Part shown: positions 512-27,997 of the stretch, in pieces | How positions within the stretch are numbered: the first letter of the stretch is position 1 | Layout of the letters: each line of letters starts with the position of its first letter | From: Candidatus Thorarchaeota archaeon | GTDB taxonomy: Archaea > Asgardarchaeota > Thorarchaeia > Thorarchaeales > Thorarchaeaceae | Direction of reading: 5' to 3' | Length of the DNA: 64,000 nucleotides | Assembly: GCA_004524445.1 (NCBI GenBank) | Contig: SDNP01000003.1 | Coordinates: 32,001-96,000 of the forward strand | Notes under the pieces: model-generated | The model's database searches: none | What the model saw: the letters and a program-made list of their open reading frames with translations, nothing else | What the model was told of the DNA's origin: nothing | Made by a program: the position numbers and the translations under genes

Positions 512-702
512 CCTGAAGAAGCAAGATTCTTCTTCAATTTGAATACTAAGGATGCCATTTTAACACTTCGCCGTTATCCAAAAGGCGGCTGTATAAGAAG
601 CGGTAGAGCAACATCTGAAACTAGATTTTTGAAAACTCAGTAGTTTGTGGGCAATACAGAAGCTCTTAACAACCAATACAGCATTTTTCAGACGGGGTAA
701 AA

Positions 703-1926: not shown

Positions 1927-1929
1927 TTC

Positions 1930-2646: not shown

Positions 2647-2660
2647 GCATAAAGACGGGA

Positions 2661-3464
2661 TTATAAACCATGAGCCGGGCGAGATTCTCGATTGTTTCTA
2701 CGTCTATCTAATATTTCATGATGGTCCTCTTTGTCCGATGCCTTGTGATGTAACCCGGGGAAGTAGTATCTACCGCCGGTACTAAAGCGAATATCAGCGA
2801 CCGCCATTCCGGCATCAACCAAACTCGATAATACTTGACGGGCGTGATCTTCAGACCACTTGAGTTCCATCATTACCTCTTCAACGGAGGTATAGCCCTT
2901 CGTGGCTGCAAGATTGACCACATCAGATTGATCGCCACGTAATTCCAATGGACGAAGCTCGACAACTTTGACGCCTCCCCGAAGTGTTCGTATTCCCGGA
3001 ATCAATCCGTTTTCTGCAACCCTATTGACAGCCTCTATCACATCATTATAGCTAACCGACTTAAACTGCGGCACACGATTAACAACCTCAACAATCAGGT
3101 CTGCAAGACCCATCAATCCTTTTGCCGAGTGTGTCGTGGCAACGTCGAGAACCGCCAATCCAAGATGGTCATAATATTCATCCATTGTGTATCCATCTAA
3201 GACGGGTCTGGCCCTGTTTTGGTAAAATTCGATTAATCCAGCTGCGTCTGGAAATTCATCTAAGATTCTTTGCTGTGCCATGAAGCCACCAACATCAATA
3301 CCCATGCGCCTCATCTCATCCAAATGCCCTTTCACTTCGCTGACTAACGCATCGGACTCCCGCTGGAATGACCTGATATCAACCGCGCCAAGGTCGTACA
3401 TCTTCTTGAGTTGATCTAAGGTAGCTATTGAAGCGTAAAGCTCCTGATGAATATGGTCATGCAT
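2661..3464 (-). CDS. ESCRT-II Vps22/36 (EAP30) protein with N-terminal Vps28-N-like domain
   Basis: C-terminal part YYDHLGLAVLDV..GLMGLADL..VSYNDVIEAV..PLELRGDQ..KGYTSVEEV..LKWSEDHARQVL..GRYYFPGL matches EAP30. Residues ~5-88 resemble the Vps28 N-terminal domain. Confidence 0.88.
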   Translation of the reverse strand: MHDHIHQELYASIATLDQLKKMYDLGAVDIRSFQRESDALVSEVKGHLDEMRRMGIDVGGFMAQQRILDEFPDAAGLIEFYQNRARPVLDGYTMDEYYDHLGLAVLDVATTHSAKGLMGLADLIVEVVNRVPQFKSVSYNDVIEAVNRVAENGLIPGIRTLRGGVKVVELRPLELRGDQSDVVNLAATKGYTSVEEVMMELKWSEDHARQVLSSLVDAGMAVADIRFSTGGRYYFPGLHHKASDKEDHHEILDRRRNNRESRPAHGL

Positions 3465-11883: not shown

Positions 11884-14800
11884 CTAGAAGAAATCATCCA
11901 ATGTTGTGATTCCTAAGAGGCTATCAAAATCAATTCCCACTGATTCCAGGACCTGCTCGAAGACTGATCTCAATGTATCTATATACTTCTGCTTATCCAA
12001 CCAGTATTCTCCCTGATTTGCGAGCACTACAGGTAGCACCCCGTCCGCATCCTTTGTCTTAATATATTCAATGATAGTCCCACCCTCAACTTCATGCCCA
12101 GCGTCTTCCATCATCATTGCTGCTCTCACATGTTGTGGCAGGGTAGTACCATATTGAGAGATGGGTTTTGTCATCTGGATACGGAACGCAAGTTCTTCAG
12201 GGGAATAGGGTTCAGCTTTCCCCTCAAGTCTATCGATTACGCAGTTCACGATTTCGCGGATTTCATCCTTAGCTACTTCAAATCCTTCAGGGCTGTCCAC
12301 ATGAGCTAAGACTTCGAGCATTTCCCGGAATGCTTCTTGAATGAATTCGGGCGTGTTCCTCTTTTTGCCACTGAGCCCCTTTACCTCAACATAACCAGAA
12401 TCATAGACCCCAATGTAGTTCTTTTTGCGATCTGAGAGAGCAACATACTTGTATGTCTTCTCCACTTCCAGGTCTATCTCCAGTTCTTGTCGTGACCATT
12501 CAATGAGCTGTCGTTGTTGTTCTTCTGTTGGACTATCAAGGAAAACTGAGTCAGTGTCCCCATACAATACTCGCACGCCCATGGACTCGGCCTTCTCTTT
12601 GGTGCGAATAATTGCGTCTCGGCCATAGGCAGTAACGCTCTCGGCAGCGGGCATACAGAACAGCTCGAAGTGTTGGGCCCCTGTCACACCATAGCTATTG
12701 TGAACTACAATTCCGTTGGTCGATACAAACAACCCATTCCCAGTTTCCAAGTCGTAGGTTTGTTCAGAATGGTCACTCTTTTGTATCGAGCGAATCCTTA
12801 CTGCATGTGTGCCATTAAAATCAGTCAATCCTCGGCCCGTTCGCCGATACTTTAGCCCTTTGCTTTCCACAATACGATACATTGATTCTTCGCGATGAAC
12901 AGATGCATGTTTCCCAAGTGCGGCTAACAGGTAAAGAATGTCATAAGCTAGTTCTTTGCTCGATGTCGAATATCGCCTAGCACCGCGAGTATTGATATTC
13001 CCATCGCCCTTGAAGAACGAATCTAGAACAATGCCTGCTCTCTCCTTATCAAGGAGGTGAATTGGGATAGATTTGTTCCGGGACCTGTTACCACAGAGGG
13101 ATTCCATGACTGCTGCAAGTATTTTCGAGTGAATGACATGGTCCTTCTCCGAATATATCGCAAAGGGCAGTTCCATCCGTTGTAAGAGGGTTCCGATCTG
13201 CTTGAAATAAGTAGGATTGACTTCCTGATACTGTGAAATCGACACCCGATTAACGCCCACATGTCCTTCAGAAAGATACCAGCCCATAAATGCGAAGAAA
13301 TCTTCATCAAGCTTAATTCTGATGTTTTCCCATTTGCCGGCCTCACGCCATCTACCACTGCTTTCAATCAGTTTTAGGTAGAAAGGTGGTGCACCTGATT
13401 CGTGTTCTCTAATCATATTCTTGGCTTCTGCGGATAGGTCATTCCATCGTGCGCGATACCACCTGCTAGCCTTTGAATATCTGAATTCTTCGTTAATTAG
13501 TGAAATCAGAGGGTTCTCTGTTCGTTGGGAACGTCGATACGAGAACTTTGTGTAGTCTTTTCTTCTTATTCCGACATGAATGGATTCCTCAGGGATGACG
13601 TCCGGAATGAATAATGTTTCAGGAGGTCTTGGTGAAAGCGGAGTCTGCTCCAGCATGAGGAGATTATCGTCTATCCGGAGATCTTCGGCCGCAACATACC
13701 GGATTGAGAGAGGCTTCTTGGCAATTGCCTTTCGGTTCTTCCGTGTGTTTTTGGGAAGGAGTTTCGGCAAGACATGGTTGACCGTGCATCGGATAGTGCG
13801 TCCGTCTCGGAGGCAGATGTTGAGAATTGATGCGGGTCCATTCTTCCGAAATCCGACAATAGGAACGAATACTGGTTTTCCAAAGGATGAAGATTCCCAT
13901 TCATTATCAATGCTTAGAATCTCAAGATTGCGCCATTCATCTTCTAAGCTGCCAATAGGTTTCTTCGATACAAGACCTTGGGAATCCCGGACCACTACTT
14001 CTTCGTTGAAAGGAAGACAGGCATTAACGAACACCTTAAGCGCTTTCTCGACAACTGAGTACCAGTTTCGTAACCCTTGATTTAGATTTGTGTCCTTGCT
14101 CTTTCCCTTAAACCATTTGACTCGGGTATCTCGAAAGAAGCCGATAGTCTGACTAATCATGCCGACATTCTTCTTGCATGTCCAATGATCTGTTTCAGGC
14201 ACTCGATTGTCCTCTGCCTTCTCACAGGATTCATGGGGACAATCAACTGTTTCATAACTGATATTGTGTGTCTTCATTATTGTGGGATAGAGACTGGCAA
14301 AGTCAAGAACTGTGGCTCCAAAATGCACTCCCGCCACTGGCTCAATAACAATAGCACCTTTGAATGCCTTGTCCTTTATCATGGCCTCAGTGTGAGCATC
14401 ACTCGATTTCAGTTCTCGAATCTCGCGTTGTTTCGGAATCAAGGCATTTCGTGAACGATGCTCCTGCCGAAAGAGCGATTGAATCCATGTTGATATTCCA
14501 AAGCGAGTCACATCTTCCATTGATAAGCGGGAAATTCGCATTAGAAGAACGATGAGCCGTAGCAGTAGATTTTCATTGTATTGAGTGACTCTCAGCGTTA
14601 TATTGGAGTCTAGCCAGCAGTAGTGAGCTAGTTCATAATATCCAAGTCTAGAAATCTCGTCGCTTAGCTCAAGTTTGCCTACATTAAGAAGACCTTGCCC
14701 GATGGATTCGAGATTGTTTCGCTCATATGCTCCTGAAAGCGCATACAATCGAACTGAGGGGTTCTTGAGGAACCTGTAGAGGTCAATGTGGATACCACCG

Positions 14801-16023
14801 TCAAGCAGTGCGATGTCCCTGCCTAATCGTATTGGACAATATTTGTCAACATCGATGCCCAGACGTTCTGCACGATTATAAAGATAGGTCAGATCGAAAG
14901 CATCTCCGACGAACGTCAAGACAATCGGATATTTGTCCAGCATTCTGAATGTTTGCATGAGCATTTCTCGTTCGTCTTCGTAAAAGACAACATTCAGTTC
15001 TTCAGGAAACTCTTCATGCTTTTCGCCTTCTTCCAAGTCAGCCCTCTTTAAAACAAAGCACTTGTTCATTCCTTGATTATCGGAGAGTCCTACCGCTGTG
15101 ACTGCCTGCGGAGCCCGATTGGCATCGGGAATTCTATTGCTCTTCTCTGAATAAACTTCTATGTCAACTGCAATTCGTTTGATATCAGGTACTTCCGTGA
15201 AGAACATAGGTGCGTAATTGTCTATCACACCTCCAAAGTATTCAACATCACCAATTGTTTTCTTGAACTCGTCTAAAGTTTCTTGGTCCAGTTGGGGAGG
15301 GCAGGGAACAAGATCTCCATTTACAATCTTGTATCGCATCCCGCATACGAGTTCGCGGTCATAACAGAAGTTGTTATGGTAACGGATATTGGCTTCCCAC
15401 GCATGACTTATGGTTTCACCCGTTGGCCCAGATCTCGTTGTTAAAAGCTCACGAATTGCGCCAGCAGTCCCGCCAATACTCAATGGATCAGTGGCATAAA
15501 TTTTAGTCATCTCGCGTGTTTCATCTCGTAGAAGGTCCTGTACTGTTTCAGATTCTAATGAGACAAAGCCACGATGATGCCGGACCTTCTTTTCAGCAGT
15601 TTGTGGAGGAAGGTCAGTAAGGCAATAAGGTAGATGGCCTGTATTATCATGCCAGAAGTAGATTCTCTCAGTTTCTGGATTGTACAGCCGCGCTATAGCT
15701 TTCTTCTGAGAGCCATCATAGTCCACAGATAATAGGTAGGAGGGGTCCAGATTTTCTGGTTCTTCTCTTAGTCCAGCAATATAATCATTAGCAATGCTTT
15801 CGTCATCTTCGAAAGTCATGCTTTCCGGGTTAATTATTATTGCAGAATTCTCACGGGAAGGGTCTTCTTTTTCCGTTGTTCTCTGTTTTACTGGCTCAGC
15901 TTCCTCAGAGGGCGATTTCGAGCCTGTTTTCCCGTCCTCTTTTGCCTCAGTTTCAATTAACATGAAGTCCTCTAAAGAAGACTGATTGCTTTCGTCATCA
16001 TGTTCGCGATTCAACCGGGGCAC
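11884..16023 (-). CDS. polB1: Family B DNA polymerase, PolB1 type, containing one intein
   Basis: LLSVDYDG..DNTGH.PY (PolB1 N-terminus), ExoI AVDIEV, DFASLYPT, KVFVNA|SYG, YGDTDS, KKNY. Confidence 0.95.
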   Translation of the reverse strand: MPRLNREHDDESNQSSLEDFMLIETEAKEDGKTGSKSPSEEAEPVKQRTTEKEDPSRENSAIIINPESMTFEDDESIANDYIAGLREEPENLDPSYLLSVDYDGSQKKAIARLYNPETERIYFWHDNTGHLPYCLTDLPPQTAEKKVRHHRGFVSLESETVQDLLRDETREMTKIYATDPLSIGGTAGAIRELLTTRSGPTGETISHAWEANIRYHNNFCYDRELVCGMRYKIVNGDLVPCPPQLDQETLDEFKKTIGDVEYFGGVIDNYAPMFFTEVPDIKRIAVDIEVYSEKSNRIPDANRAPQAVTAVGLSDNQGMNKCFVLKRADLEEGEKHEEFPEELNVVFYEDEREMLMQTFRMLDKYPIVLTFVGDAFDLTYLYNRAERLGIDVDKYCPIRLGRDIALLDGGIHIDLYRFLKNPSVRLYALSGAYERNNLESIGQGLLNVGKLELSDEISRLGYYELAHYCWLDSNITLRVTQYNENLLLRLIVLLMRISRLSMEDVTRFGISTWIQSLFRQEHRSRNALIPKQREIRELKSSDAHTEAMIKDKAFKGAIVIEPVAGVHFGATVLDFASLYPTIMKTHNISYETVDCPHESCEKAEDNRVPETDHWTCKKNVGMISQTIGFFRDTRVKWFKGKSKDTNLNQGLRNWYSVVEKALKVFVNACLPFNEEVVVRDSQGLVSKKPIGSLEDEWRNLEILSIDNEWESSSFGKPVFVPIVGFRKNGPASILNICLRDGRTIRCTVNHVLPKLLPKNTRKNRKAIAKKPLSIRYVAAEDLRIDDNLLMLEQTPLSPRPPETLFIPDVIPEESIHVGIRRKDYTKFSYRRSQRTENPLISLINEEFRYSKASRWYRARWNDLSAEAKNMIREHESGAPPFYLKLIESSGRWREAGKWENIRIKLDEDFFAFMGWYLSEGHVGVNRVSISQYQEVNPTYFKQIGTLLQRMELPFAIYSEKDHVIHSKILAAVMESLCGNRSRNKSIPIHLLDKERAGIVLDSFFKGDGNINTRGARRYSTSSKELAYDILYLLAALGKHASVHREESMYRIVESKGLKYRRTGRGLTDFNGTHAVRIRSIQKSDHSEQTYDLETGNGLFVSTNGIVVHNSYGVTGAQHFELFCMPAAESVTAYGRDAIIRTKEKAESMGVRVLYGDTDSVFLDSPTEEQQRQLIEWSRQELEIDLEVEKTYKYVALSDRKKNYIGVYDSGYVEVKGLSGKKRNTPEFIQEAFREMLEVLAHVDSPEGFEVAKDEIREIVNCVIDRLEGKAEPYSPEELAFRIQMTKPISQYGTTLPQHVRAAMMMEDAGHEVEGGTIIEYIKTKDADGVLPVVLANQGEYWLDKQKYIDTLRSVFEQVLESVGIDFDSLLGITTLDDFF
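12697..14019 (-). mobile_element. Intein (441 aa) with LAGLIDADG homing endonuclease in PolB1 motif B
   Basis: Begins CLPFNEEV, block B CTVNH, LAGLIDADG-like FMGWYLSEG and LDSFFKGDG, ends TYDLET..VVHN followed by Ser+1. Removal restores KVFVNASYG. Confidence 0.95.
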
Positions 16024-16122
16024 TCATTTATTCATGCATGGTAGAGTATTGATAAGCACTTCCTATTGGCATGAGAAACTCGCAACGCGTATCTTCATTA
16101 AGCAGGTTTTCATTTCTCAGGT

Positions 16123-16563
16123 ATGCCAACTATCAAGAAAACCCAGACAGACCGAGTAATAGTTGCTAGACTCTTTCCTGGTGACGATATTCTCGAGTCG
16201 CTTGAGCAGATTGCTGCGGATTATGATATTCAGGCAGGCATTCTCAATCTAATTGGAGCCATTGAAGGAGCACATCTCGGTTACTTCAATGTCAAAAAGA
16301 AAGAATACATGGACTTTGAGGTAGATGAGGATCTCGAGGTTGTTTCCTGTATGGGTAACATATCTCGTAATGAAGAAAACGCACCTATTGTTCATGCGCA
16401 TATGGTTGTAGCGGATGAATCGGGAAGGTGCTATGGTGGTCACTTGATGAAGGGTTGCACAGTTTCAGTGACAATTGAGATTTTTATCAACGTTCTGGTG
16501 GGAACACTCACACGCACTGAGGACGAATCTACGGGCTTACATCTACTCAATCTCGAACATTGA
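16123..16563 (+). CDS. PPC/DUF296 domain protein
   Basis: ARLFPGDD, EVVSCMGNI, HAHMVV, GGHL. Confidence 0.9.
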   Translation: MPTIKKTQTDRVIVARLFPGDDILESLEQIAADYDIQAGILNLIGAIEGAHLGYFNVKKKEYMDFEVDEDLEVVSCMGNISRNEENAPIVHAHMVVADESGRCYGGHLMKGCTVSVTIEIFINVLVGTLTRTEDESTGLHLLNLEH

Positions 16564-16984
16564 CATTGCTAAGCTTTTTACCAGTTTCCTCTAGCTGTTC
16601 CCTAGAGGCCATCTCGTCCCGATATCCTTCTGGAAATCGGAAACCAAACTCATCTCCTGCCTTGCGTGGAATGACATGGATGTGCAAATGAGGGATTTCT
16701 TGCCCAGCTTCACTGCCATTTGCGATTGCATTGATTATTCCCGTGGGAGCATACACGCCATGGACTCGCTTTGTAAGCTCACGCAGACGTACTGCCAAGT
16801 GAGAAGCGACCTCTGGATTTACATCTAACATGTTTTCAAAATGATCCTTAGGGATAAGTAGACAATGTCCCTCGTTCACTGGAAAGACATCCATGAATGC
16901 CATACAAACCTCATCTTCAAAAATAACGGAGGCAGGAATTTCGCCACTCACAATCTTGCAAAAGGTGCAATCTTGTTTTTTCAT
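16547..16984 (-). CDS. HIT family hydrolase
   Basis: DCTFCKIVSGEIP, GQEIPHLHIHVIPR. Likely start MKKQ at 16984. Confidence 0.92.
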   Translation of the reverse strand: MKKQDCTFCKIVSGEIPASVIFEDEVCMAFMDVFPVNEGHCLLIPKDHFENMLDVNPEVASHLAVRLRELTKRVHGVYAPTGIINAIANGSEAGQEIPHLHIHVIPRKAGDEFGFRFPEGYRDEMASREQLEETGKKLSNVNVRD

Positions 16985-17093
16985 ATTTTTCTGATTGACT
17001 TTATGCTTTGATAAATTGTTCGAGGGCATCAGGCAATGCCAAAGCGAAAGAGAATAGTAACCTCTCGTCAGCATGTCTCGGATGTTTCTCGCA

Positions 17094-18518
17094 TCAAATA
17101 TCGGGTTTCTCATATCCAATCATTTCTTCCTCAAGATGCAAAGCGATTTTCAAAGCTAAACCCTCTTCAGCGTGCTTGGTGATAACTTGAATACCAATTG
17201 GCAAGCCGTCTGACGATGTGCCACCTCTAAACGTGACGGAAGGAAGACCAACCAGACTGTAGGGATGCGTGTAGCTCAGTAGGTCAAGTGGATTGAATGA
17301 TGAATCACGAGATTCGCCATGTTTGAATGCTGGAGTGGCGGACACGGGACAAATGATAGCATCATATTCATCCATGAAACGAAGGACTTGACTCCTGTAT
17401 GTATCCCACTTTATACTCCAAAAGAAGAACTCGACACCCAACATAGCTTCGTTACCCTTCGATTGTTGAGATTCTTCAAGCCAATCATCAGCCAAGTCAT
17501 ATATCTCATCAGGATAGAGCTCAACCGGCTCCGACCATTCTTGTACTTTCGGTTCAGTGCCATCTTTTATGCCTGAAGAGAATCGATTCAGCCCTCGTTC
17601 CACATTCAGAAATGTCTTCGTGACTGGTGGATACTCCTCTTCCACAACCAAATCTGTTGTAACTAGTAAATCTGCAGCCTCAGAAATGACTCGTTTTATC
17701 TCTGAGTTGGGTTCAACAAAGCCATTCTCTGTGTAATAGGCAATGGTCAAGTTGTTGAGTCTTATAGTATCATGGCTATCGTATTTCATTGGTAGACATC
17801 GAGAGTCCCAGTTGTCTGGCCCCATGATGACTGGAAGAACAAGTGATAGATCCCTGATGGATCGAGCCATAGGTCCGATTCGCGTTGTGTCGAGAAAACC
17901 TAAGTAAGGAGGAATGGTCCCCATTCGAGAGAGCCGACCGAATGTGGGAGCAAGACCGCAAATGCCGCTGTATGATGAAGGCCATAGTATACTTCCTCCG
18001 GTATCTGAGCCAATTCCAAGGAAGGACCCTCCGGCCGCTATTAGGGCAGCTTCCCCTCCACTACTTGAGCCGACAGTCTTCTCAAGATCATAAGGATTAT
18101 TGGTTCGTCCATAGATTTCGTTATTTGTCTCAAACCCTGAACAGAAGGCAGGACAGTTAGTCTTACCAACGATAATTGCGCCCGCATCCTTTAGTCTCTT
18201 GACAACACTTGCATCGGTAGAGGGAATATATCCGCGTCGCTCAGTGATTCCTCCCGTAGTTATCATGCCCTCTACTTCGATATTATCCTTCACTGTGATT
18301 GGCAGGCCAAATAAGGGGCCACCCTTGGAGGGGGCCTCATCCATCTCTTCAGCTTGAGATACGACTTGTTCCTCATTATAGTGGACAAGGGCATTTATTT
18401 TATCATTGACTTGATTTATTCTCTCAAGCAAACCTGTTACTACTTCTTTCACCGAAGTTCTTTCTTGCCGAATTAGACGCACGATTTCATAGGCGGGCAG
18501 GAACGGTAGGTCATCCAT
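17094..18518 (-). CDS. Amidase signature family enzyme
   Basis: GLPITVKD, GKTN, GSSSGGEAA, GSDTGGSI. Confidence 0.92.
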   Translation of the reverse strand: MDDLPFLPAYEIVRLIRQERTSVKEVVTGLLERINQVNDKINALVHYNEEQVVSQAEEMDEAPSKGGPLFGLPITVKDNIEVEGMITTGGITERRGYIPSTDASVVKRLKDAGAIIVGKTNCPAFCSGFETNNEIYGRTNNPYDLEKTVGSSSGGEAALIAAGGSFLGIGSDTGGSILWPSSYSGICGLAPTFGRLSRMGTIPPYLGFLDTTRIGPMARSIRDLSLVLPVIMGPDNWDSRCLPMKYDSHDTIRLNNLTIAYYTENGFVEPNSEIKRVISEAADLLVTTDLVVEEEYPPVTKTFLNVERGLNRFSSGIKDGTEPKVQEWSEPVELYPDEIYDLADDWLEESQQSKGNEAMLGVEFFFWSIKWDTYRSQVLRFMDEYDAIICPVSATPAFKHGESRDSSFNPLDLLSYTHPYSLVGLPSVTFRGGTSSDGLPIGIQVITKHAEEGLALKIALHLEEEMIGYEKPDI

Positions 18519-18707
18519 TCACGACAGGTCTCCATTGGATACGCTTTTCATTAGCGGGTTAACAACACGATATTTGTGTGAGGGGTGTATTCCGCAGTTA
18601 GGTCTTTTGGAACTTCAAGATTCACAATGGGGCAAAGGGCATCCAAGGAAGCCTCATTAGTTCAAATCTTGAGTGACCTTATAACTCAGCACAGCAAGGT
18701 GAGATTA

Positions 18708-19880
18708 TTGAGCGGACGAAGAATGCTCATATACTTTGACCAGACCCAAAATGAGAGGGGTAGACTTGATACAACTTACTCAGAGCTACGCCAACTGCTC
18801 CGAGATAACGACTATGATGTCGAGGCCTACACTGATTTCATGCTCCTTCCAAAAGAAATCAAGTCAGCTGGTATCATGGTATTTGGATGTCCGAACAGCT
18901 CTAAGCTTAGAAAAGCGGAGATTGCAGCACTAAAAGAATTCGTGAAGGAAGGAGGGGGACTCATGCTCCTCTCTCACTCAGGCGGGGACCGGGGACTTAT
19001 GAATAACATGAGCGATGTGTCCAAGCCCTTCGGAATAACTTTCGAAAATACCGCGATTAAAGATGACAAACATAACGATGGGCTGCCTACTATGCCTTTC
19101 ATCAGGGATTTAGAGGATCATGCGATTATGGAAGAAATTGATGAGATTCTGCTTCCATCCGGTTGCACACTGGAGGTGGAGAGCAAGGCAGAAGTCTTAG
19201 CGAAGACGGGAGGAACAGCGGACCCACCCAGCAGACCTGTCATTGCAGTCGCCGAGCATGGGAAGGGTAGAGTGATTTGTATTGGCAGTTATGAAGTCTT
19301 CAGAAGAGGTGGTGGCTTCAAGAAAGAGGGTAACAAAACCTTTGCACTCAATGCATTTTCTTGGCTCAATAGAATGCGGTCCGCGCCTCAAAGAGCAGAA
19401 GATAGGACGAAAAATGATTCACTACAAGAGGACAAAAGAGATTCGGGGAGCGCCGCAGTGTCAGAGGAATTTGAGAATACACTAAGAAGACTGGTGAATG
19501 CAGTATTCGATTTACAGAAGGATATCGAAACTGCCACAGAAAAAGTGGAGCGGGTGGAAAACAATATAGATGCTCTAAGAAATCAGTTTCAAGATTTTGC
19601 ACAAAAAACACAAGACCAGCTGGGCGTGATTATCCCCGCAAAGCAGTTCAAAACTGAAGATGAGAACCGGGCGGCGGACCTAGAAGCCGATATCAAATCA
19701 CTGAATGCAGAATTAAAATCTGTCAAGCAGCTCCAGGATCATATCGAAGATCGACATTCATCAGGGGCAATGCCAAGGGATGCCTACGAAGAACAGGCAG
19801 AAAAATTGGCTGAGCGAGTCAAGTCTCTGGAAAAGAGAACTAAGGAGAAGAAGAAGGAGCTCGAAGACCTAGCCAAGTAG
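18708..19880 (+). CDS. GIFT/DUF4350 (IFT52-like) domain + coiled coil + steadiness-box-like C-terminus
   Basis: IYFDQTQNE..EIAALKEFVKEGGGLMLL..FGITF..GKGRVICIGS..NKTFALNAFSWL, then heptad repeats. Likely TTG start at 18708 after AAGGTGA; no signal peptide. Confidence 0.8.
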   Translation: MSGRRMLIYFDQTQNERGRLDTTYSELRQLLRDNDYDVEAYTDFMLLPKEIKSAGIMVFGCPNSSKLRKAEIAALKEFVKEGGGLMLLSHSGGDRGLMNNMSDVSKPFGITFENTAIKDDKHNDGLPTMPFIRDLEDHAIMEEIDEILLPSGCTLEVESKAEVLAKTGGTADPPSRPVIAVAEHGKGRVICIGSYEVFRRGGGFKKEGNKTFALNAFSWLNRMRSAPQRAEDRTKNDSLQEDKRDSGSAAVSEEFENTLRRLVNAVFDLQKDIETATEKVERVENNIDALRNQFQDFAQKTQDQLGVIIPAKQFKTEDENRAADLEADIKSLNAELKSVKQLQDHIEDRHSSGAMPRDAYEEQAEKLAERVKSLEKRTKEKKKELEDLAK

Positions 19881-19899
19881 GTGGTGGATCACACTACAG

Positions 19900-21507
19900 T
19901 CAATTAGGGCTCTTGCTTTTTGGAATTATTATATCCCGACCTGTTTTTTGCCTGATGTGACTAATTAGTACCCGCAGCTTCACCTTTAGGAATCGGAAGG
20001 GATATGAGATTACGGACCAAAATGCTCCGATTTGCTTCGCAGCGAGATACCCAATGAAAATCAGAAGAACCGAAAAGAGATACACCTCGCGCGGCGGAAT
20101 AAGTATTGAGAATGAGAGTGCAATCGGTACCCACAGCATGGAGCTGGAGAAGTTAATCCTAGTGTCTTTGCTTGTAATCATCTTCTGCGATGAAAATATG
20201 GAGAAGAATGGCGCGAAGAGGGTGAAATAATACTTGTACACGCCTCTGGGCCCAGCCAAGTGGACAAAGAGCATCAGTAGAAGTGTCAAGAAGAGCACTC
20301 TTCGAAGATACAATTTGTCATCCTCAGGACGCGGCTCCAGAAGCATTATGCCCATGAAAATCACAACGCCAAAGGACAGCAATATGCCCTGATAAATAAC
20401 AAAATTTAGCATCTCTGCCAATAACGGGAGTTCTGCAACAACGGCAAGGACTTGCAATGTCATGGGTATGGGGTAGCCTGGAACCTCTGTAAAGGGCTCT
20501 TCGAGAGAAGAACCTCCAGCTGCGAGAAGGATTTGTGATAAAATATTTGGCTGGGCAACCAAGAAGGGAAAGAGGACTGCTAATACGAAGATAATCACGA
20601 CTACAGAGCTCCTCGCAAATCCGGGAAAATCAATTGCTTGATGGAGAAAATCAAGAAGGCCCTTCTTGCTTTCAGAGATTTCAGCAGCTGATTCTTCTGG
20701 ATCGGTTTCTGGGTGTGTCGTAGTACTATCTTCATTCTGTCGGGATTCTTGATCAGGCTTGTTTGGCTTAACTAGAAGATAAACAACCAAAGGAATACCT
20801 AGAAACCAAGCCATCTGCTTGAATAGAGCTGCAACGACGATTGATATGGTGCCAATATCCTTTCTTCCCTTGATGAGCATATAGAAGCCAGAAAAGAAGA
20901 AGAAGATAAAGGGAGATGGGTTAAGCCAAGCAAAAGTGATGTGGTAGAGAATATTGGGATTAAGCAGATATGTGAGGGCTGCAACAGCTCCAATGACCTG
21001 ATTCTCAGACAGTTCCTTTGCAATGCCAAAGACGGGAAATGCTGTTAGAAAACCAAAAGAAACCAATAACAATCCGATGCCCCACCCCTCTATTGGCAGC
21101 ATCACGCCAATTGCATATAGATAGGCATACAATGGAGGAAAGATGTAGAGCCCGTTGTTGTTTTCATATCCATCCAGTACTATATGACCGAATTCTTCAC
21201 AATAAGGCATAACTCCCCGAAGCATATTATGACCCCAGTGAATGTAGTAGAATGAGTAATCGGTATAACCCTCAAACTGGTAATGTATTGCGAAGCCAAG
21301 CAAATCAAAGGATCCTTCCCCTAGCCAAACACCCCGTGTTCTCCAAAGAGCAGATTCCATGTAATCCTCAATGGCGAGGGAGAAGACATTCCCCCACAAA
21401 TAAAGACCGATTACTAGTACAAAAATAAAAAGCAAGTAATCTCGAAGAAAATTGATAATTTTCTGTCTGATGTGGGAGAGCTCCATGGAAAATTCTCCTT
21501 GTGGCAT
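19900..21507 (-). CDS. Multi-pass membrane glycosyltransferase, GT-C fold (GT87/PIG-M-like)
   Basis: YTDYSFYY..G..PY, YIFPPLYAY, LLNP, ALFKQ; many TM segments. Confidence 0.7.
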   Translation of the reverse strand: MPQGEFSMELSHIRQKIINFLRDYLLFIFVLVIGLYLWGNVFSLAIEDYMESALWRTRGVWLGEGSFDLLGFAIHYQFEGYTDYSFYYIHWGHNMLRGVMPYCEEFGHIVLDGYENNNGLYIFPPLYAYLYAIGVMLPIEGWGIGLLLVSFGFLTAFPVFGIAKELSENQVIGAVAALTYLLNPNILYHITFAWLNPSPFIFFFFSGFYMLIKGRKDIGTISIVVAALFKQMAWFLGIPLVVYLLVKPNKPDQESRQNEDSTTTHPETDPEESAAEISESKKGLLDFLHQAIDFPGFARSSVVVIIFVLAVLFPFLVAQPNILSQILLAAGGSSLEEPFTEVPGYPIPMTLQVLAVVAELPLLAEMLNFVIYQGILLSFGVVIFMGIMLLEPRPEDDKLYLRRVLFLTLLLMLFVHLAGPRGVYKYYFTLFAPFFSIFSSQKMITSKDTRINFSSSMLWVPIALSFSILIPPREVYLFSVLLIFIGYLAAKQIGAFWSVISYPFRFLKVKLRVLISHIRQKTGRDIIIPKSKSPN

Positions 21508-21556
21508 TGCTCATTAATGCTTCCTCTGCATTGAGGTATTCCTTCAAATCGTTTTC

Positions 21557-23638
21557 TTACATATCCGATGACTGAACCAATTTCGCCTCACTACTAGTAC
21601 CCGTCTTTGAAACATCCACAACAGGCACTCCTTCCCACCCTTGGACATCGGTGTGTGTGATGAGGAAAATCTGTCTGAAGGATTGATCATTCACTAGGTT
21701 TTGAACCACTGATTTTCTCCGGGCACTGTCCAAACCACCCAAGGGCTCGTCCAGCAAGACGCAACGTACGCGAGGTGATAATGCAGGGCTATCTTTGAGG
21801 GGGCGGATTGCGCTCATTGTCCGACTGATACCTAACCTCAATCCTAGACTGATAGCCGTGCGGTCACCAAAGCTTAGTTGAGAGGTCTTCTTTATGGCAT
21901 TATCACGAACATCTTGAATCTGGAGCTCAAGACCAGCTCCCCCGCGTCCACGACCTGGTGTTGGTACCAAATCAACACCCGAGTATTGCCCACTTGTGAA
22001 CGAACGGACATAGGGGTTGGTTGCACCACGTATTATTCCTATCAATCGCTTCTGAATGACATAATCTGCTAAGAATCCACTGACTAGTTTCCGTCTGACA
22101 TATTGCGAATGCTCATGTAGAGATTTTAGGTCCTCAATCTGGGAGCCAATCTCATCCATCTCCTCAATCTTTTTCTTGGCTTCTGATATGCGTTCTTTCT
22201 CGCTATCAATCATCGTATTTATGGATTCAATCTCGTTCTTTAGAGATCCCAATTTTGCAATCCAAGTTTCAACGAGTCGTTGAAGTTCGCCAAGCTTCTT
22301 TACTCCATGTTTGTCAAGAAGAGTTTGAAGGTCCTTTACTCCCAACTTCGCAATTGCTTTCTCCAAATCATTCCGAGCTTCTTCTACTTCTGCTTCAGCA
22401 TCAGCCACATCATTCTGGTGTCTCTTGATTTGTCCAATGGCTTGGAGAGCTCTTTGGATTTCTCCCAGCCGCTTCTGTTGGGTCTGAGCTTCTCCGGAGA
22501 GCTTCTTGTTTTTCGTCTGAAGCTTGCTGATTCGCTCTTTCCCCTCTTCAATCGTATCGTGATATTCATGTAGAATATCATCGCGCTCCTCTGGTGTCAG
22601 TGGTTTTGAGCATGTAGGACAGATTGTCACATCCTTTGCTTCTTGAAGGGTTTCAATCTTATCCTTGAGGTCTCTCTCTGTTCCTCTTATTGCTCCAATC
22701 TCCCGCTCAATCTTTGATTTCTCTTCACTTAGTTCTTCTATTCGAGCATTCACATCATCTTCATTCTTGGACAAGGTATGCAAGCGCGCTTGTACTAATT
22801 CTTCTTCTGCCGTCAGTAGACCTGCTTCCTCCAGATAGGAATCTCTAGTTTTCTTTACACTCTTCAGTTGGACCTCCTTGCGTTCTAGTTTGGAGGACAT
22901 GTCCTGAATTGCATCTAAGAGATGAGGCTGAGGCACATCTTTCAGCAAATCCTCTGTGCCCTCTATCTCAGCCTTTTTCGACTCGATGGTCGCTTTATGT
23001 TCTTCAATTCGTTCATCCATGTCTTCAATTTGCTTTTCAATCACTTCAGGTCGAACATACTTATCCTCTAAAACCCCTATGCGAGTCTTCAAGTCGTCTT
23101 CAAGATGAGATATGTGTCCGGACATATCACCAAGAATCTCAATATTATATACATCAACCAGAAGGCCTCGAAGGACCGATGCAGTAGCATTCGCAATTAG
23201 TGCTACTTCGCCTTGTCGTACAAGAAGAGTGTTTAATGCCTGCCGCAGACCCAAGTTGATAATTTCCTCGAGTTTTGACTCGACCGAGTTACTACCATCA
23301 GCAATTCGCTTCCATCCATTGACCGTATCTTGGTAGAAGACAACAGATAGCCTGCTAGCTGGATCATACGAGCGGTCTATCTTGTATTGACGACCTGCCA
23401 CTTCGAACTCAACGATGACCTTACAAAATGATGATGAGAAGCTAATCAATTCCTCGTTGGTTAGCTCAACCGCATTTGAACCCCATAGACACCATAAAAC
23501 AGCCTCAAATATCGATGACTTTCCAGTAGAGTTCGGCCCCTTGATGATAATCAGGCCGTCTGGGAGGTGGCCCTCAGTGGGCAGACGAACATCTCGGAAT
23601 GGCTTGAAATTTGTGAGCTCTATGCTCAGAATCTTCAT
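21557..23638 (-). CDS. rad50: Rad50/SbcC-like SMC ATPase
   Basis: Walker A GPNSTGKS, Q-loop VRQGE, zinc hook CPTC, signature LSFGD, Walker B LLDEP, ITH. Confidence 0.9.
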   Translation of the reverse strand: MKILSIELTNFKPFRDVRLPTEGHLPDGLIIIKGPNSTGKSSIFEAVLWCLWGSNAVELTNEELISFSSSFCKVIVEFEVAGRQYKIDRSYDPASRLSVVFYQDTVNGWKRIADGSNSVESKLEEIINLGLRQALNTLLVRQGEVALIANATASVLRGLLVDVYNIEILGDMSGHISHLEDDLKTRIGVLEDKYVRPEVIEKQIEDMDERIEEHKATIESKKAEIEGTEDLLKDVPQPHLLDAIQDMSSKLERKEVQLKSVKKTRDSYLEEAGLLTAEEELVQARLHTLSKNEDDVNARIEELSEEKSKIEREIGAIRGTERDLKDKIETLQEAKDVTICPTCSKPLTPEERDDILHEYHDTIEEGKERISKLQTKNKKLSGEAQTQQKRLGEIQRALQAIGQIKRHQNDVADAEAEVEEARNDLEKAIAKLGVKDLQTLLDKHGVKKLGELQRLVETWIAKLGSLKNEIESINTMIDSEKERISEAKKKIEEMDEIGSQIEDLKSLHEHSQYVRRKLVSGFLADYVIQKRLIGIIRGATNPYVRSFTSGQYSGVDLVPTPGRGRGGAGLELQIQDVRDNAIKKTSQLSFGDRTAISLGLRLGISRTMSAIRPLKDSPALSPRVRCVLLDEPLGGLDSARRKSVVQNLVNDQSFRQIFLITHTDVQGWEGVPVVDVSKTGTSSEAKLVQSSDM

Positions 23639-24942
23639 TTCTCACCATCCTCCGATAGATCGATATAGGCTAGCTTCTCTTCATCTCGGTTCACAGCCTT
23701 TCTCAAAGCTTTGACTGCGACCTTTGTGAGCGTGCTTATGTCATATTGCTCATCGATATCTAGGGTTTCAACATACTCCCTGAAGTCCTGTTCAGGGTCT
23801 TCAATCAAGTATTCTGATTCTATTTCCGGATAAGCGGTTTCCCTAAACTCTTCCTTGTCGCGTCGTATGGTCCATACCAACTGTGCCAGGTTATACTCTG
23901 AGCCCTTCGTAAAGGCTTCAAGACGAAAATTCTCCAATGCAATGGTAAGGTCCATCGGCTTAACTCTGCTCGCAGAACCTTCAAAGACTAATCTGACGCG
24001 TCCAGCAGTTGAAATGTCCCAGTCATATTTGAGGTCCTTTTCATCGAGAAAGGTTCGCACTTTATCAATCATCGTACCAACAGTATCATCAGAATCAATT
24101 GTTAGCGTTTCATTGTAGACGGGACGAACAAAGTCAAGATGAGTGGGTGTGACGTTAAGAGCGTCCTCCTCTATGTCCACCACTATGAAGCCTTTCTCAT
24201 GCTTTATTTCATCAAATCTCCAGCGTTCCGGGGAACCCGCATACCAAGCGTTCTTAGAATGTGCATGTTGTCGGTGATCGTGTCCAAGCGCAATGTAGTC
24301 ATAACCCATGTCGAAAATCGGAGAGTAAAGACTCTCATCGAGCTCCATTCCATGTGCAACAGCGATAGAAGCCTTGTCGGAAGATGGTTTCTGATAAGTC
24401 CGAATCCAGTCAATGAATGCATCTACCAGGCCTGCAGAATCAAGAACATTCTTGTCAATATATGGAAAACAATACACATTCACTTTCTCATATTCCCTGA
24501 CAAGTGGTTCCTCCATTGCAATTGCCCGCTTCAGTTCTTGTTGAGTTGCAACTTCCAATCGAGGAACAGCCATTTTGAGAGTGTCTAAGAGGGATACCTC
24601 CAGAGTTCGATATATGCCGTGATTTCCTTCCAATATGAAAACTGGAATCTCCGTTCGCTCAGTGAAGTCCTTCAGGATCCTAATCGCGGTTTCCTGTGCG
24701 ACCACGGGAGGTTGTGTGGGATTTCCTTCCCACGGAGAGTTATAGAGATCCCCCGAATGTACAACGAGTTCAACCTTTGGTTCAAGTTCTCCTATTTTTT
24801 TAAAAAGCTCTTCAAACCGTTCGTAGAAGTCATTCTCAAGAAGTCGAGTCCTCATTTCCACCGCCCACACATTTTGCCGTACCCCTGTACCTGGCCGAGT
24901 GCCAAGGTGGGTATCCGAGATGTGAGCAATTCGAGTTGTCAT
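23635..24942 (-). CDS. mre11: Mre11/SbcD-like metallophosphoesterase nuclease
   Basis: HISDTHLG, HSGDLY, GNHG, AHG, YIALGHDH, YAGSPE; overlaps rad50 by 4 nt. Confidence 0.9.
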   Translation of the reverse strand: MTTRIAHISDTHLGTRPGTGVRQNVWAVEMRTRLLENDFYERFEELFKKIGELEPKVELVVHSGDLYNSPWEGNPTQPPVVAQETAIRILKDFTERTEIPVFILEGNHGIYRTLEVSLLDTLKMAVPRLEVATQQELKRAIAMEEPLVREYEKVNVYCFPYIDKNVLDSAGLVDAFIDWIRTYQKPSSDKASIAVAHGMELDESLYSPIFDMGYDYIALGHDHRQHAHSKNAWYAGSPERWRFDEIKHEKGFIVVDIEEDALNVTPTHLDFVRPVYNETLTIDSDDTVGTMIDKVRTFLDEKDLKYDWDISTAGRVRLVFEGSASRVKPMDLTIALENFRLEAFTKGSEYNLAQLVWTIRRDKEEFRETAYPEIESEYLIEDPEQDFREYVETLDIDEQYDISTLTKVAVKALRKAVNRDEEKLAYIDLSEDGEK

Positions 24943-24951
24943 TTACATTCC

Positions 24952-26703
24952 TCATAGAATGTGTGTTTCTTCTTTGTCGCCATCTGAAGAGTAGGTATGT
25001 TTGTCACGGTTAAAGATGTCATCAAATAATGGTATCCTTACTGGAAGTGGCATCTCTCTATAAGAGGCTGTTAGTAGTGCCTCTCCGCGAGCCATCACTC
25101 TAAACTCATTCTGAAACCCTGAGATATTCACACTTGCATTATCTATGCATGCCTGTATTTCTCGTTCATTTCCAAGTCGAAGGTTGATTTCAGTATTCAT
25201 CTGAGAGAGTATGACATTGTCTAGAACGCTGACCTGTTGGCTCACAACGAGTAACCCAATATTGAATTTCCTACCTTGCCTAGAGATATCTTTGAAGACA
25301 GATCGACCGCGCATTAATTCTGGATTCAGGATAGACGGAGCCTCTTCTACTGTCACAAGAATTACCGGAAGCTTTCTGGGATCACGCACGCTTGACTTGT
25401 CAGAACTCCCATCCTTGCCGTAGAAAGATCTCGCTGCAGATTTGACTCCATTGAAGAACGGATATGGGAGTCTGCTTTTACCTTGAGTGTCAAAGTCGCC
25501 AAGATTACCGCTACTCTTCAATGCACGCCGCATATCGGATAGAGTACGAGTCACTATTGTCGTAAGAAGGAATTGCTCCATATCACTCATCAGGCTCGTG
25601 TTGACCACAAGAACGCGGCCGGATTCCATGGCTTTGAAAATCTCACCGAGAATTGATTGACCAGACTCGATGAATATCGGTGACCTCTGAACAAAACTCA
25701 GGCGTCTCTGAACTGCTCGGAGGGTCCCCTTAGGATGCCCATGAGGGTCTTCATCCATCTGCAGGATTTCACCGATCCAATTCTCGTGATGTTGAGCATA
25801 TTGAGCATCAATAAATGAGTACATCTGAGATGTAAAGTCCATTATTGAGTACAAATCACGCGGCTGAATCTCACTCCACAGGATGCGAATTTGGCGGGCA
25901 TATCTTTGAATCTCCCTCATTGTTGCACCAGCATGAGTTGTTAAGTAATAGAAATCGCCGAGTACGTCTGAACGAGTAGTTGGACTCATCTCTTCTACAA
26001 TATGCTGAATCCCATAGTTGTCAACACCCTGGGCAAATTCATCGTGGGGGTCAATGCAGAATGCGGAGATCGTTTGGCCCTCTCCGGTTCGTTTCACTTT
26101 GAGGTTATTGTCAATTATGGATTTGATTAGGACCATCATCAAATTACTTTTACCGGCACCTGTGGACCCGAAAATTCCCAAATGCATCGGAAGAAATTTC
26201 GATGGAATTTTTGCAGGAACATCGAGTGTTGCCTCTCCTACTTGCAAGTCCCCAACGTACATATGACCGCCTGTTTGGCTCTCAAGCATCTCCCTGACAA
26301 CCTCATCAGACGTACCAGGAACGGGTCGGTATACATCAGCCAGATGATCTGGTAATCTTCGCGGAGCGCGGAATTTCCAGCCATCCTTCGTTTCTTCGGC
26401 ATAACCGAGCATCTTTCCCTCAACAGAGAGAAGCATATTTCGCTCAATACCTGATAGGTACGAATCACCTTCTACCATGAGAGTGCCTGCGACTCGTGCC
26501 AAGTCATCGACTTGTCTCAAGTAATTCTCAAGCCCTAGAACCCGAAAGAAGAACACGCGCTCCTGATTATCACGAGAAGAGTAGATTAGAAAAATCTCGC
26601 CGACGCTAACATCCCGATTCTTGCCCATGATTCCAAGATTGGTTTGGTTGCCTATGCCTAGCTTCCCGTAGTGCTCTCCGAGATTGTCCTTTTGTATTGT
26701 CAT
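24952..26703 (-). CDS. herA: HerA helicase/ATPase
   Basis: HLGIFGSTGAGKS, DPHDE, VEEAP, RQGRKF, SQQ, SQMN. Likely start MTIQK at 26703 after AGGAG. Confidence 0.9.
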   Translation of the reverse strand: MTIQKDNLGEHYGKLGIGNQTNLGIMGKNRDVSVGEIFLIYSSRDNQERVFFFRVLGLENYLRQVDDLARVAGTLMVEGDSYLSGIERNMLLSVEGKMLGYAEETKDGWKFRAPRRLPDHLADVYRPVPGTSDEVVREMLESQTGGHMYVGDLQVGEATLDVPAKIPSKFLPMHLGIFGSTGAGKSNLMMVLIKSIIDNNLKVKRTGEGQTISAFCIDPHDEFAQGVDNYGIQHIVEEMSPTTRSDVLGDFYYLTTHAGATMREIQRYARQIRILWSEIQPRDLYSIMDFTSQMYSFIDAQYAQHHENWIGEILQMDEDPHGHPKGTLRAVQRRLSFVQRSPIFIESGQSILGEIFKAMESGRVLVVNTSLMSDMEQFLLTTIVTRTLSDMRRALKSSGNLGDFDTQGKSRLPYPFFNGVKSAARSFYGKDGSSDKSSVRDPRKLPVILVTVEEAPSILNPELMRGRSVFKDISRQGRKFNIGLLVVSQQVSVLDNVILSQMNTEINLRLGNEREIQACIDNASVNISGFQNEFRVMARGEALLTASYREMPLPVRIPLFDDIFNRDKHTYSSDGDKEETHIL

Positions 26704-26719
26704 TTGTCGATACACTCTC

Positions 26720-27997
26720 CTAAAGATTGAAGTCAGCACGGAGCGGTTCCGTTGTCTGCTTCAAGATATCACCAGTAATTTCGCGTGCGATTCGAAGATC
26801 CTCATATCCTAGCTTACATGATTGGTGTGCGAGTGCCAAGGGAACAGGATAGCCATACCATCGAGCGTCCCGTGCCATGAATTCAAGGTCACGAAATATG
26901 AGTTTCTCATTCTTTCTGGTGGCTTTGGGGTTGTCCTTCACGAAGATATTCTCCAGCCACCAGATTCTATCAAAATCGATACGTGAAGGGCGATTGTCAC
27001 CTGAAAAGCTGTAAAGATATGGTACAGCCAGTTTAGGGGGAATATATGTTCGATCTTCGTAAATATGAAGTCCGCCTCCGGGATCCTCACTACAAGGCAG
27101 TTGGCAGAACCATTTGGCAGTATCGCCAAATTTCTCCTTAGCCATGCCTGCTATTCTATGAGCAAATGGAATAGTATGATTCTTGCTGACGGCGCAGAGT
27201 ACCACCCCATTTTCTCTTGCCAACTTCGATAGTTCTCGTAGCATGAACCCGCTAGGCATAGAGGGGTACTGACGCACAAAATGCATGAAGACGGACATGG
27301 CACCATCTAGTAGTAGATACTTGGGGTTTATTTCACTAGTCAAGACCCCACGTGCAGCAGCGTACTCAGAGACAGCGCGCAATTCTTCGTGTACGATAGG
27401 ATTAGTGAGAATTTGTGCGCGCGTTATCAAAGAGCTCATGCTCTTCAGTTCAGAAATGTAGTGAGAATATCTGGATGATTTGCCAATATCCTGGAGAGAT
27501 TCAATCTCATCTGGTTTGAAGTCCATAAAAAACGGAAGAATAAGTTCTGCAATGTCTTTTTGGGGATAGATGTTAGCAAGCGACTCTGATAACTTTTGTT
27601 TGGCATCCCCTCTAACTCCAGAGTGCCAGTGCAGATCAAGATGAGGTTGCTCTCCAAGCTGATTTTCTATACGCAATCCATCTATAGGGTCAAAAAAGCT
27701 ACCTTCACGTGTATTTGTATAGAGAATGCTGGTTGCCGTACTAATGATATGCACCCGGATATCATCCAAGGTGACTAAGTTATCCGAACCCGATCCGTCT
27801 ATTGCAGCCACAATGAAATCTTCGTCTAATACAACATCTGAAGGATAGGTTTCAACCGAGTCCAAAAGATCTTCTTTTATTCTCAGTTCATCCTTTGCGA
27901 ACTCTTCTTCATCCCTTCGATCTTGCTCATTATGAATATCCTTTATAGTATATTCCACAAGTCTTCTGAAGTTATCAGTGAGTATCTTGTCTAGCAT
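26720..27997 (-). CDS. nurA: NurA 5'-3' nuclease
   Basis: AAIDGS, LLLDG, VSK, GYPVPLALAH; adjacent to herA. Confidence 0.88.
   Translation of the reverse strand: MLDKILTDNFRRLVEYTIKDIHNEQDRRDEEEFAKDELRIKEDLLDSVETYPSDVVLDEDFIVAAIDGSGSDNLVTLDDIRVHIISTATSILYTNTREGSFFDPIDGLRIENQLGEQPHLDLHWHSGVRGDAKQKLSESLANIYPQKDIAELILPFFMDFKPDEIESLQDIGKSSRYSHYISELKSMSSLITRAQILTNPIVHEELRAVSEYAAARGVLTSEINPKYLLLDGAMSVFMHFVRQYPSMPSGFMLRELSKLARENGVVLCAVSKNHTIPFAHRIAGMAKEKFGDTAKWFCQLPCSEDPGGGLHIYEDRTYIPPKLAVPYLYSFSGDNRPSRIDFDRIWWLENIFVKDNPKATRKNEKLIFRDLEFMARDARWYGYPVPLALAHQSCKLGYEDLRIAREITGDILKQTTEPLRADFNL

Follow-up and report, generated by a model that had tools for sequence, protein, structure and literature searches.

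A conserved Thorarchaeotal protein that joins a GIFT domain to a stalk helix and a steadiness-box-like C-terminal hairpin

The gene at 18708–19880 of the window (the whole 64,000-nucleotide stretch of DNA that was analysed, and to which all positions refer) encodes a soluble protein in which an N-terminal GIFT domain is followed by a linker, a long stalk helix and a C-terminal helical hairpin; by profile comparison this hairpin is detectably related to the steadiness box (SB) of genuine Asgard UEV-Vps23 proteins. The combination of GIFT domain, stalk and steadiness-box-like hairpin is conserved and apparently undescribed. We consider it quite possible, if somewhat short of probable, that the protein, a member of an Asgard-wide family, acts in the cytoplasm as a soluble scaffold or adaptor, assembles through a hairpin of the SB class and resembles Vps23/TSG101 with GIFT in the place of UEV.

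Results

The gene and its product

The host is an Asgard archaeon with a genome of 2.79 Mb that is 90% complete. In the ORF list of the window the gene is enclosed in a longer frame (18585 to 19880, forward strand), although MSGRR is the N-terminus of > 300 clustered homologues of ~390 amino acids each, nearly all of them from Thorarchaeota metagenome-assembled genomes. Because the homologues begin with MSGRR, the start was assigned to the TTG at 18708 (Table 1), and the extent of 18708–19880 that an earlier note on this DNA had given to the gene is thereby borne out. That note had also described the product as lacking a signal peptide, which agrees with our analysis: neither a signal peptide nor a transmembrane (TM) helix was found in the 390-amino-acid protein, for which the maximum Kyte–Doolittle value over 19 residues is 0.97. 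Conservation runs over the whole length including the tail (~60% identity across > 300 Thorarchaeotal clusters), and such high conservation of the helices, as well as of the head, is unusual for a mere spacer.

Domain layout and predicted structure

A GIFT head, a polar linker, a coiled coil of ~55 amino acids and a C-terminal hairpin had been proposed from the letters alone, with structure prediction named as a check. Pfam and an AlphaFold2 (AF2) model (42 homologues as input; pLDDT 78.7) both support this layout, and the model reproduces the linker, a 57-residue stalk helix and the terminal hairpin. The head is predicted to adopt an alpha/beta GIFT fold with pLDDT mostly 88–95. The linker is predicted to be disordered and is the least conserved, length-variable stretch of homologue alignment A1; the stalk helix is conserved in both alignments A1 and A6. 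The break that follows the stalk is near-invariant among 42 Thorarchaeotal homologues and was modelled as non-helical with a short helix. Beyond it, the hairpin consists of two predicted helices (residues 317–351 and 357–389, pLDDT 85–91) joined by the turn RHSSGAMP, and the tail modelled alone gave the same helices as the full-length model. The string that the earlier note had quoted for the hairpin corresponds to residues ~334–371.

Table 1. Coordinates of the GIFT gene, of its predicted parts and of the ESCRT genes in the window
Feature	Residues	Position in window	Strand	Basis or remark
Whole gene	390 aa plus stop	18708..19880	+	TTG start; SD-like aaggtgag at 18696-18703
GIFT domain, GATase1-like fold, cytoplasmic	1-222	18708..19373	+	PF23355, PDB match, Foldseek, AF2
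Disordered polar/acidic linker	~223-248	19374..19451	+	AF2 pLDDT <50 at 225-249
Stalk helix	249-305	19452..19622	+	AF2; invariant motif RRLVNAVFDLQKDI
Conserved inter-helix break GVxIPAKQFKT	306-316	19623..19655	+	Homologue alignment, AF2
Steadiness-box-like (SB/CdvA/SHOCT-class) helical hairpin	317-389	19656..19874	+	AF2, hhalign, HMM
ESCRT-III		2-511	-	Window start
Vps4		703-1926	+	ESCRT cluster
Vps25-like protein		1930-2646	+	ESCRT cluster
EAP30 Vps22/36-like protein		2661-3464	-	ESCRT cluster

The head is a GIFT domain of the IFT52 type

The head had been likened to the N-terminus of IFT52, and IFT52 is indeed its best match of solved structure, both by sequence and by fold. The head scored 63–66 bits against Pfam PF23355 (IFT52_GIFT; cut-off 27.2), with profile positions 2–108 and ~157–233 covered, and a phmmer search of the PDB returned IFT52 chains only (E 5.6e-12, 48.6 bits). 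The first Foldseek match was likewise IFT52 (5fmr_A; E 2.6e-14, TM by target 0.70, 26% identity), with 5fms next (E 5.8e-13, TM 0.76) and STM3548, OST48 and ThuA-like proteins after it. Whether the head would instead group with ordinary DUF4350 proteins had been raised in the earlier note; by Pfam score the head passes PF23355, and DUF4350 reached 27–30 bits, under its cut-off of 30.4. ThuA and ABC_transp_aux likewise remained below their own cut-offs, and no Pfam match to UEV or UQ_con was found in the head. Since SGGD occupies the place of the GATase nucleophile elbow, the head probably serves for binding and not as an amidotransferase.

IFT52 (OSM-6/BLD1; PF23355; 5FMR, 5FMS, 8BD7) and the GIFT protein have the domain, the fold and a cytosolic location in common, and the motifs GG..L...GG-[DE] and FG-x-x-x-N-[DT]-x-[VI] occur in both. 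The remainder of the two proteins differs. In IFT52 a central region binds IFT70 (and 88) and a C-terminal domain binds IFT46; both are absent from the GIFT protein, whose tail is unrelated to them, and neither the central PF23352 nor the C-terminal PF21178 appeared in a Pfam scan at E up to 10.

IFT52 is no closer to the Thorarchaeotal protein than other prokaryotic GIFT proteins are. In an exhaustive search with the head, which gave 1010 cluster representatives, ~90 cytosolic proteins combining GIFT with a coiled coil ranked first, followed by large secreted GIFT proteins, and the best 150 of the 1010 all scored at least 67 bits to the Thorarchaeotal head, compared with 48.6 bits for IFT52. 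The prokaryotic GIFT/DUF4350/GldG proteins and OST48 share the fold and many motifs with the GIFT protein, although the prokaryotic members of this group are multidomain proteins, secreted or anchored in the membrane, and the GIFT protein is soluble. The same genome contains at least five other GIFT ORFs (e.g. 38709–41120 of the window), and these paralogues score 20–33 bits on PF23355 as against 65.6 for the protein studied here. The named relatives are Asgard, Promethearchaeota or Ranarchaeia.

A direct line from this family to IFT52 had to be weighed against these data. On such an account the Asgard cytosolic GIFT family would be a proto-IFT52, from which the IFT52 head descended directly and which already acted as a scaffold with small GTPases or Roadblock-type partners; we regard this as unlikely. 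IFT52 is the sole PDB family retrieved by a profile of 56 diverse cytosolic Asgard relatives (E 4.8e-30, 107.6 bits), as would suit direct descent, but a profile of secreted prokaryotic GIFT proteins matches IFT52 too (E 1.5e-23, 86.6 bits). IFT52 is also Foldseek's first match, at the 26% identity given above, and IFT52 and the family are both cytosolic whereas most prokaryotic GIFT proteins are not; yet the Thorarchaeotal head matches > 150 prokaryotic cluster representatives at 67 bits or more, above IFT52, and the GIFT protein is without either of the other IFT52 domains. A fusion of GIFT with a Ras/Arf GTPase is known (P0190) and the family is present in most of the Asgard genomes searched (PF23355 above cut-off in 133 of 151), both of which favour the direct line; against it, PF23355 scores 27–114 bits on secreted prokaryotic GIFT proteins and also marks atlas clusters from Bacteroidota, Thermodesulfobacteriota, Actinomycetota and Thermoplasmatota. 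The suggestion that the protein is a prokaryotic relative of an intraflagellar transport domain thus holds for the domain, while a special Asgard–IFT52 descent is not supported, given that secreted GIFT profiles also match IFT52 strongly; the IFT52 likeness of the protein is real at domain level only. GIFT domains with prokaryotic relatives were reportedly already known from Beatson and Ponting in 2004. A literature search found no paper on the present family, nor one joining Asgard archaea with IFT52.

The tail hairpin is related to Asgard steadiness boxes

The hairpin had been read in the earlier note as following the pattern of the TSG101 steadiness box. The eukaryote-based Pfam model Vps23_core (PF09454) is blind to the protein: it was absent among the best 25 Pfam families listed for this tail, and run against all six frames of the genome it had no match at E up to 10. 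The tail was compared with a reference set of 18 steadiness boxes from Asgard UEV-Vps23 proteins (~260 amino acids, from other lineages) that had been found by Vps23_core, and of which one (L018) has UQ_con/UEV and Vps23_core at 32.5 bits, above cut-off. A profile of the wider family's tails aligned with these steadiness boxes over 76 columns (hhalign; Prob 96.6%, E 5.5e-10, P 6e-10, score about 53.7–53.8), in register and with the turn glycine and an aromatic residue aligned. The Asgard Vps23 hairpins follow the pattern L-E-L-E-S-E-K-I-A-I-E-D-L-L-x-x-L-E-E-K-F-E-x-G-E-I-x-P-T-x-Y; the tails of the wider GIFT family follow L-E-x-K-L-x-S-I-x-x-L-x-x-F-I-E-K-K-Y-x-S-G-K-I-x-x-x-x-Y. With the Thorarchaeotal tails only, the match to the Asgard SB set was retained (Prob 84%, P 7e-6, score 33.0), and as a calibrator the published SB of Thorarchaeotal Znr_CC_PH_SB scored 34.9 against the same set.

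That this likeness is an artefact of coiled-coil composition is a reading we hold to be very improbable. Several searches of the tail did return only what such an artefact would give: its Pfam matches are generic coiled-coil families (DUF7310, Spectrin, GvpG, Prefoldin); a PDB profile search found only spurious HA2 helices; and Foldseek of the tail model was not discriminating, with nothing below E 0.45 and with CdvA at rank 4, Vps23-C at rank 15 and the human ESCRT-I headpiece at rank 30 (rmsd 0.7 over 59 columns) among generic hairpins. Composition was already disfavoured, however, by the hhalign controls, in which reversed alignments scored 23, 30 column shuffles no more than 13.2 and the stalk helix of the same protein, which is not SB-like, 12.2, compared with 53.7 for the family tails; by the register of the 76 aligned columns; and by HMMER, which recovers the Vps23 steadiness boxes on its own. 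A plain HMM of the family tail profile run over 151 Asgard genomes retrieved GIFT proteins and Vps23 steadiness boxes (30–36 bits, E 1e-8 to 9e-7 per genome), together with SB proteins of 500–540 amino acids at 43 bits. In the other direction, the GIFT and coiled-coil protein of one relative (G112) scored 17.3 bits against Vps23_core directly. The steadiness-box claim thus stands with respect to Asgard Vps23 and fails with respect to the Pfam model.

A promiscuous class of hairpins

SHOCT had been named alongside Vps23_core as the family with which to compare the tail, and a generic coiled coil or SHOCT as the outcome that would speak against a steadiness box. The tail scores above both: canonical C-terminal SHOCT reached 26.9 with the family tails and 15.1 with the Thorarchaeotal tail in hhalign, below the scores for the Asgard SB set, and SHOCT (PF09851) was not among the Pfam matches listed for the 18708–19880 protein. 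Canonical SHOCT is, moreover, a 28-residue unit at the very C-terminus, whereas the GIFT tail has ~30 residues of helix beyond the turn. On 29 diverse family tails the Pfam matches were all weak and were to GvpG, Prefoldin, CdvA (PF18822; 7/29, best E 4.9e-4, below cut-off) and SHOCT (5/29, best E 0.0033). The pattern helix – G-x-[ILM]-[ST] – x2-3 – [YF] – helix, found in the CdvA hairpin and in SHOCT, is also present in the GIFT tail.

An extended set of Asgard SHOCT-HMM proteins scored 51.7 against the family tails, alongside 53.8 for SB, and 47.0 against the Thorarchaeotal tail, above its 33.0 for SB; this set consists largely of proteins with a Zn ribbon, a coiled coil and a CdvA-like (PF18822) hairpin, a class that has been related to SB (Makarova et al., 2024; PMC10936438). 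Taken together, the tail hairpin appears to belong to one promiscuous SB/CdvA/SHOCT-like class, and homology of the hairpin does not by itself place the protein in ESCRT-I. The genome has at least six further ORFs with this hairpin, membrane proteins and small proteins among them; given this spread, the hairpin may serve oligomerisation generically.

Taken further, the tail may serve generic self-association and have nothing to do with ESCRT, in a homo-oligomeric GIFT protein whose ligand-binding or enzymatic head serves some other process, of which DNA replication or repair is one possibility suggested by the neighbours (PolB, the Rad50-Mre11-HerA operon and, in one relative, DNA ligase). We think this a serious contender, if a somewhat doubtful one. 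Besides its spread over those other ORFs, the hairpin motif lies inside an amidohydrolase in one relative, and tails within the family are swappable: many members of the wider family lack the motif, and P0190 has a Ras-like GTPase instead. The head also retains near-invariant polar residues at 30–40% identity (D11, E71, D94, N100, D119, H138 and C153), which favours this reading as well. The scores of the extended SHOCT-like set, as good as SB for the family and better for the Thorarchaeotal tail, point the same way, but the set is not a clean alternative in view of its largely SB-related composition, canonical SHOCT is far weaker, and the replication and repair neighbours differ by lineage and are often on the opposite strand.

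Genomic neighbourhood

The window opens with ESCRT genes (Table 1), and a gene for a 519-amino-acid Znr_CC_PH_SB protein is situated just upstream of the window, beside ESCRT-III and Vps4. The GIFT gene is outside any ESCRT operon, ~15 kb from this cluster, with AspRS, a methylase, an aminotransferase and an intein-bearing PolB encoded in between. The order ESCRT – PolB – GIFT seen in Thorarchaeota occurs again in a distant lineage (G006, G017 and G076), in which Vps28 and UEV-Vps23 are encoded 5 kb from the GIFT gene; this recurrence favours an association with ESCRT. In the present 90%-complete genome there was no match to Vps28 (PF03997), and no canonical Vps23 was detected.

The immediate neighbours conserved in Thorarchaeota are a HIT protein and a multi-TM protein at the end of the Rad50-Mre11-HerA operon, and among distant homologues the neighbourhoods vary. 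Some members of the wider family are without the hairpin motif, and one adjoins a second GIFT gene downstream. These observations weigh against a connection with ESCRT. The neighbouring multi-TM protein (535 amino acids; 19900–21507, reverse strand) matched no Pfam family even at E 10, and a link to OST48/GT-C that was considered by way of this neighbour was set aside on that account.

The searched genomes of three lineages (f10, f17 and f25) contained no Snf7 match, and the GIFT proteins there have no SB-like tail. Across the genomes, the SB-tailed form and ESCRT-III are associated in the right direction (~0.08, from a rough family-level count of related genomes), but weakly and with relatedness as a confounder.

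Discussion

Vps23 consists of a UEV domain, a linker, a stalk and a steadiness box. Vps23/TSG101 of ESCRT-I and the GIFT protein follow the same order of head, linker, helix and C-terminal hairpin, and differ in that the head is UEV in the one and GIFT in the other and that Vps23/TSG101 forms a headpiece with the hairpins of its partners Vps28 and Vps37, no Vps28 being found in the genome of the GIFT protein. A second point of comparison is Znr_CC_PH_SB (asCOG cog.011556; PMC10936438), which is likewise an Asgard-specific multidomain protein with an SB-like terminal hairpin, although its head comprises three Zn ribbons, a coiled coil and a PH domain instead of GIFT. Its SB and the Thorarchaeotal GIFT tail are about equally close to the Asgard Vps23 steadiness boxes (34.9 and 33.0 respectively); compared directly with each other, the GIFT and Znr_CC_PH_SB tails gave no significant match (hhalign 14.5). 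There is no mention of GIFT, DUF4350 or IFT52 in Makarova et al. (2024; PMC10936438) or its supplements.

An ESCRT-I-like role is our leading hypothesis. The GIFT head would be carried on a flexible linker of ~25 residues and a stalk helix of ~57 residues, and we infer that the hairpin most probably mediates assembly with hairpins of its own kind, whether in further copies of the protein or in different proteins that carry one. Among the latter, the strongest candidate partner would be the ESCRT-I-like Znr_CC_PH_SB, encoded beside Vps4, ESCRT-III and ESCRT-II ~15 kb upstream, and together with it the protein would function as a counterpart of Vps23/TSG101 whose head is GIFT instead of UEV. The identities of the domains, their conservation and the homology of the hairpin are results of the analysis; contact with ESCRT and the binding of a ligand by the head are putative, as is the cargo-adaptor role that the earlier note had proposed. 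Because Vps28 and a canonical Vps23 were not found, because ~15 kb separate the gene from the ESCRT cluster and because the hairpin occurs on other ORFs, membership of ESCRT-I is plausible but unproven.

A bolder possibility, which we consider more improbable still than descent of the IFT52 head from this family taken by itself, is that the protein is an alternative ESCRT-I-type subunit bringing a non-ubiquitin ligand to ESCRT and, at the same time, that its cytosolic GIFT lineage was the source of the IFT52 head. If this were true, the ancestries of two trafficking systems of eukaryotes would be joined in a single archaeal protein.

No relatives of eukaryotes closer than the Asgard archaea are known, and for that reason the trafficking parts of these archaea bear on the origin of the eukaryotic cell. 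In the GIFT protein the IFT52 head has a cytosolic counterpart among prokaryotes, one that is present in most of the Asgard genomes searched. As an SB-bearing family it would be the third such kind in Asgard archaea, after UEV-Vps23 and Znr_CC_PH_SB, and one whose head would recognise a ligand other than ubiquitin. Should the link to ESCRT be true, ESCRT-I-like adaptors with exchangeable heads would be older than eukaryotes; should it be false, the steadiness box, the CdvA hairpin and SHOCT-like hairpins would still constitute one promiscuous assembly module in these archaea.

Gene neighbourhood of the GIFT gene

A complete ESCRT cluster occupies positions 1–3464 of the window, and the gene that lies directly upstream of the window encodes a Znr_CC_PH_SB protein made up of three Zn ribbons, a coiled coil, a PH-like domain and a steadiness-box (SB) hairpin. 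Replication and repair genes adjoin the GIFT gene in three lineages, that of the window and those of loci L014 and L016, and together comprise DNA ligase, PolB and Rad50-Mre11-HerA. Given that the set of neighbours varies by lineage, this proximity may be a remnant of synteny and not the sign of a functional link. The PolB intein in the window holds a homing-endonuclease-like insert, and LAGLIDADG_3 is present in the orthologue of this polymerase at locus L010.

The position of the multi-pass membrane protein gene between the GIFT gene and Rad50 is conserved in Thorarchaeota (loci L009–L012), where it is apparently the final gene of the HerA-Mre11-Rad50 operon; its product had no Pfam family match even at an E-value of 10.

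Features of the window and of related loci
Feature	Location	Strand	Size or score
ESCRT-III	window 2–511	-	
Vps4 with MIT domain	window 703–1926	+	
Vps25-like ESCRT-II protein	window 1930–2646	+	
EAP30 Vps22/36-like protein	window 2661–3464	-	
Znr_CC_PH_SB protein	L048 61–1620		519 aa
Family B DNA polymerase, split by intein	window 11884–16023	-	1379 aa
Multi-pass membrane protein	window 19900–21507	-	535 aa
Second GIFT protein	window 38709–41120	+	803 aa; PF23355, 28 bits
Replication/repair genes beside GIFT gene	window 11884–26739		
Replication/repair genes beside GIFT gene	L014 4036–6657		
Replication/repair genes beside GIFT gene	L016 6397–8193		

Variation among GIFT proteins

The second GIFT protein of the window is of the ordinary secreted type: it has a signal peptide, contains the PHP-like motif HDHTxxSDG and is anchored by a TM segment at its C-terminus. 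At least four more GIFT ORFs were found on other contigs of the same genome (L002, L004, L006 and L008). In the related protein P0190 (468 aa) a Ras/Arf-like small GTPase (Ras, 113.8 bits) is joined to a cytosolic GIFT domain and replaces the coiled-coil tail, a fusion that is intriguing because Rab-like GTPases occur within IFT-B. The 591-aa GIFT protein P0225, which has both a signal peptide and a TM helix, terminates in a ubiquitin-like Rad60-SLD domain.

In one Asgard genus (family f9, genus g41) each GIFT-tail ORF carries a single in-frame TAA (G141:C104, G121:C66, G071:C6, G109:C27, G104:C34, G125:C244 and G077:C148). This stop could separate two neighbouring genes, mark a recoding event or reflect a disruption that these ORFs have in common.

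Distribution of the hairpin module

The G-x-I-S-x-x-E-Y hairpin module is promiscuous in this genome: its motif occurs in six further ORFs (L050–L055), four of 81, 107, 183 and 200 aa, the last with the motif twice, and two encoding large proteins, one of them membrane-bound. In proteins of other Asgard genomes that combine a Zn ribbon with a coiled coil (L069, L070 and L081), matches to the Pfam SHOCT and CdvA models overlap on one hairpin, and G126:C41 was matched by both Vps23_core and SHOCT; these overlaps point to a single superfamily that takes in the steadiness box together with the CdvA and SHOCT-like hairpins.
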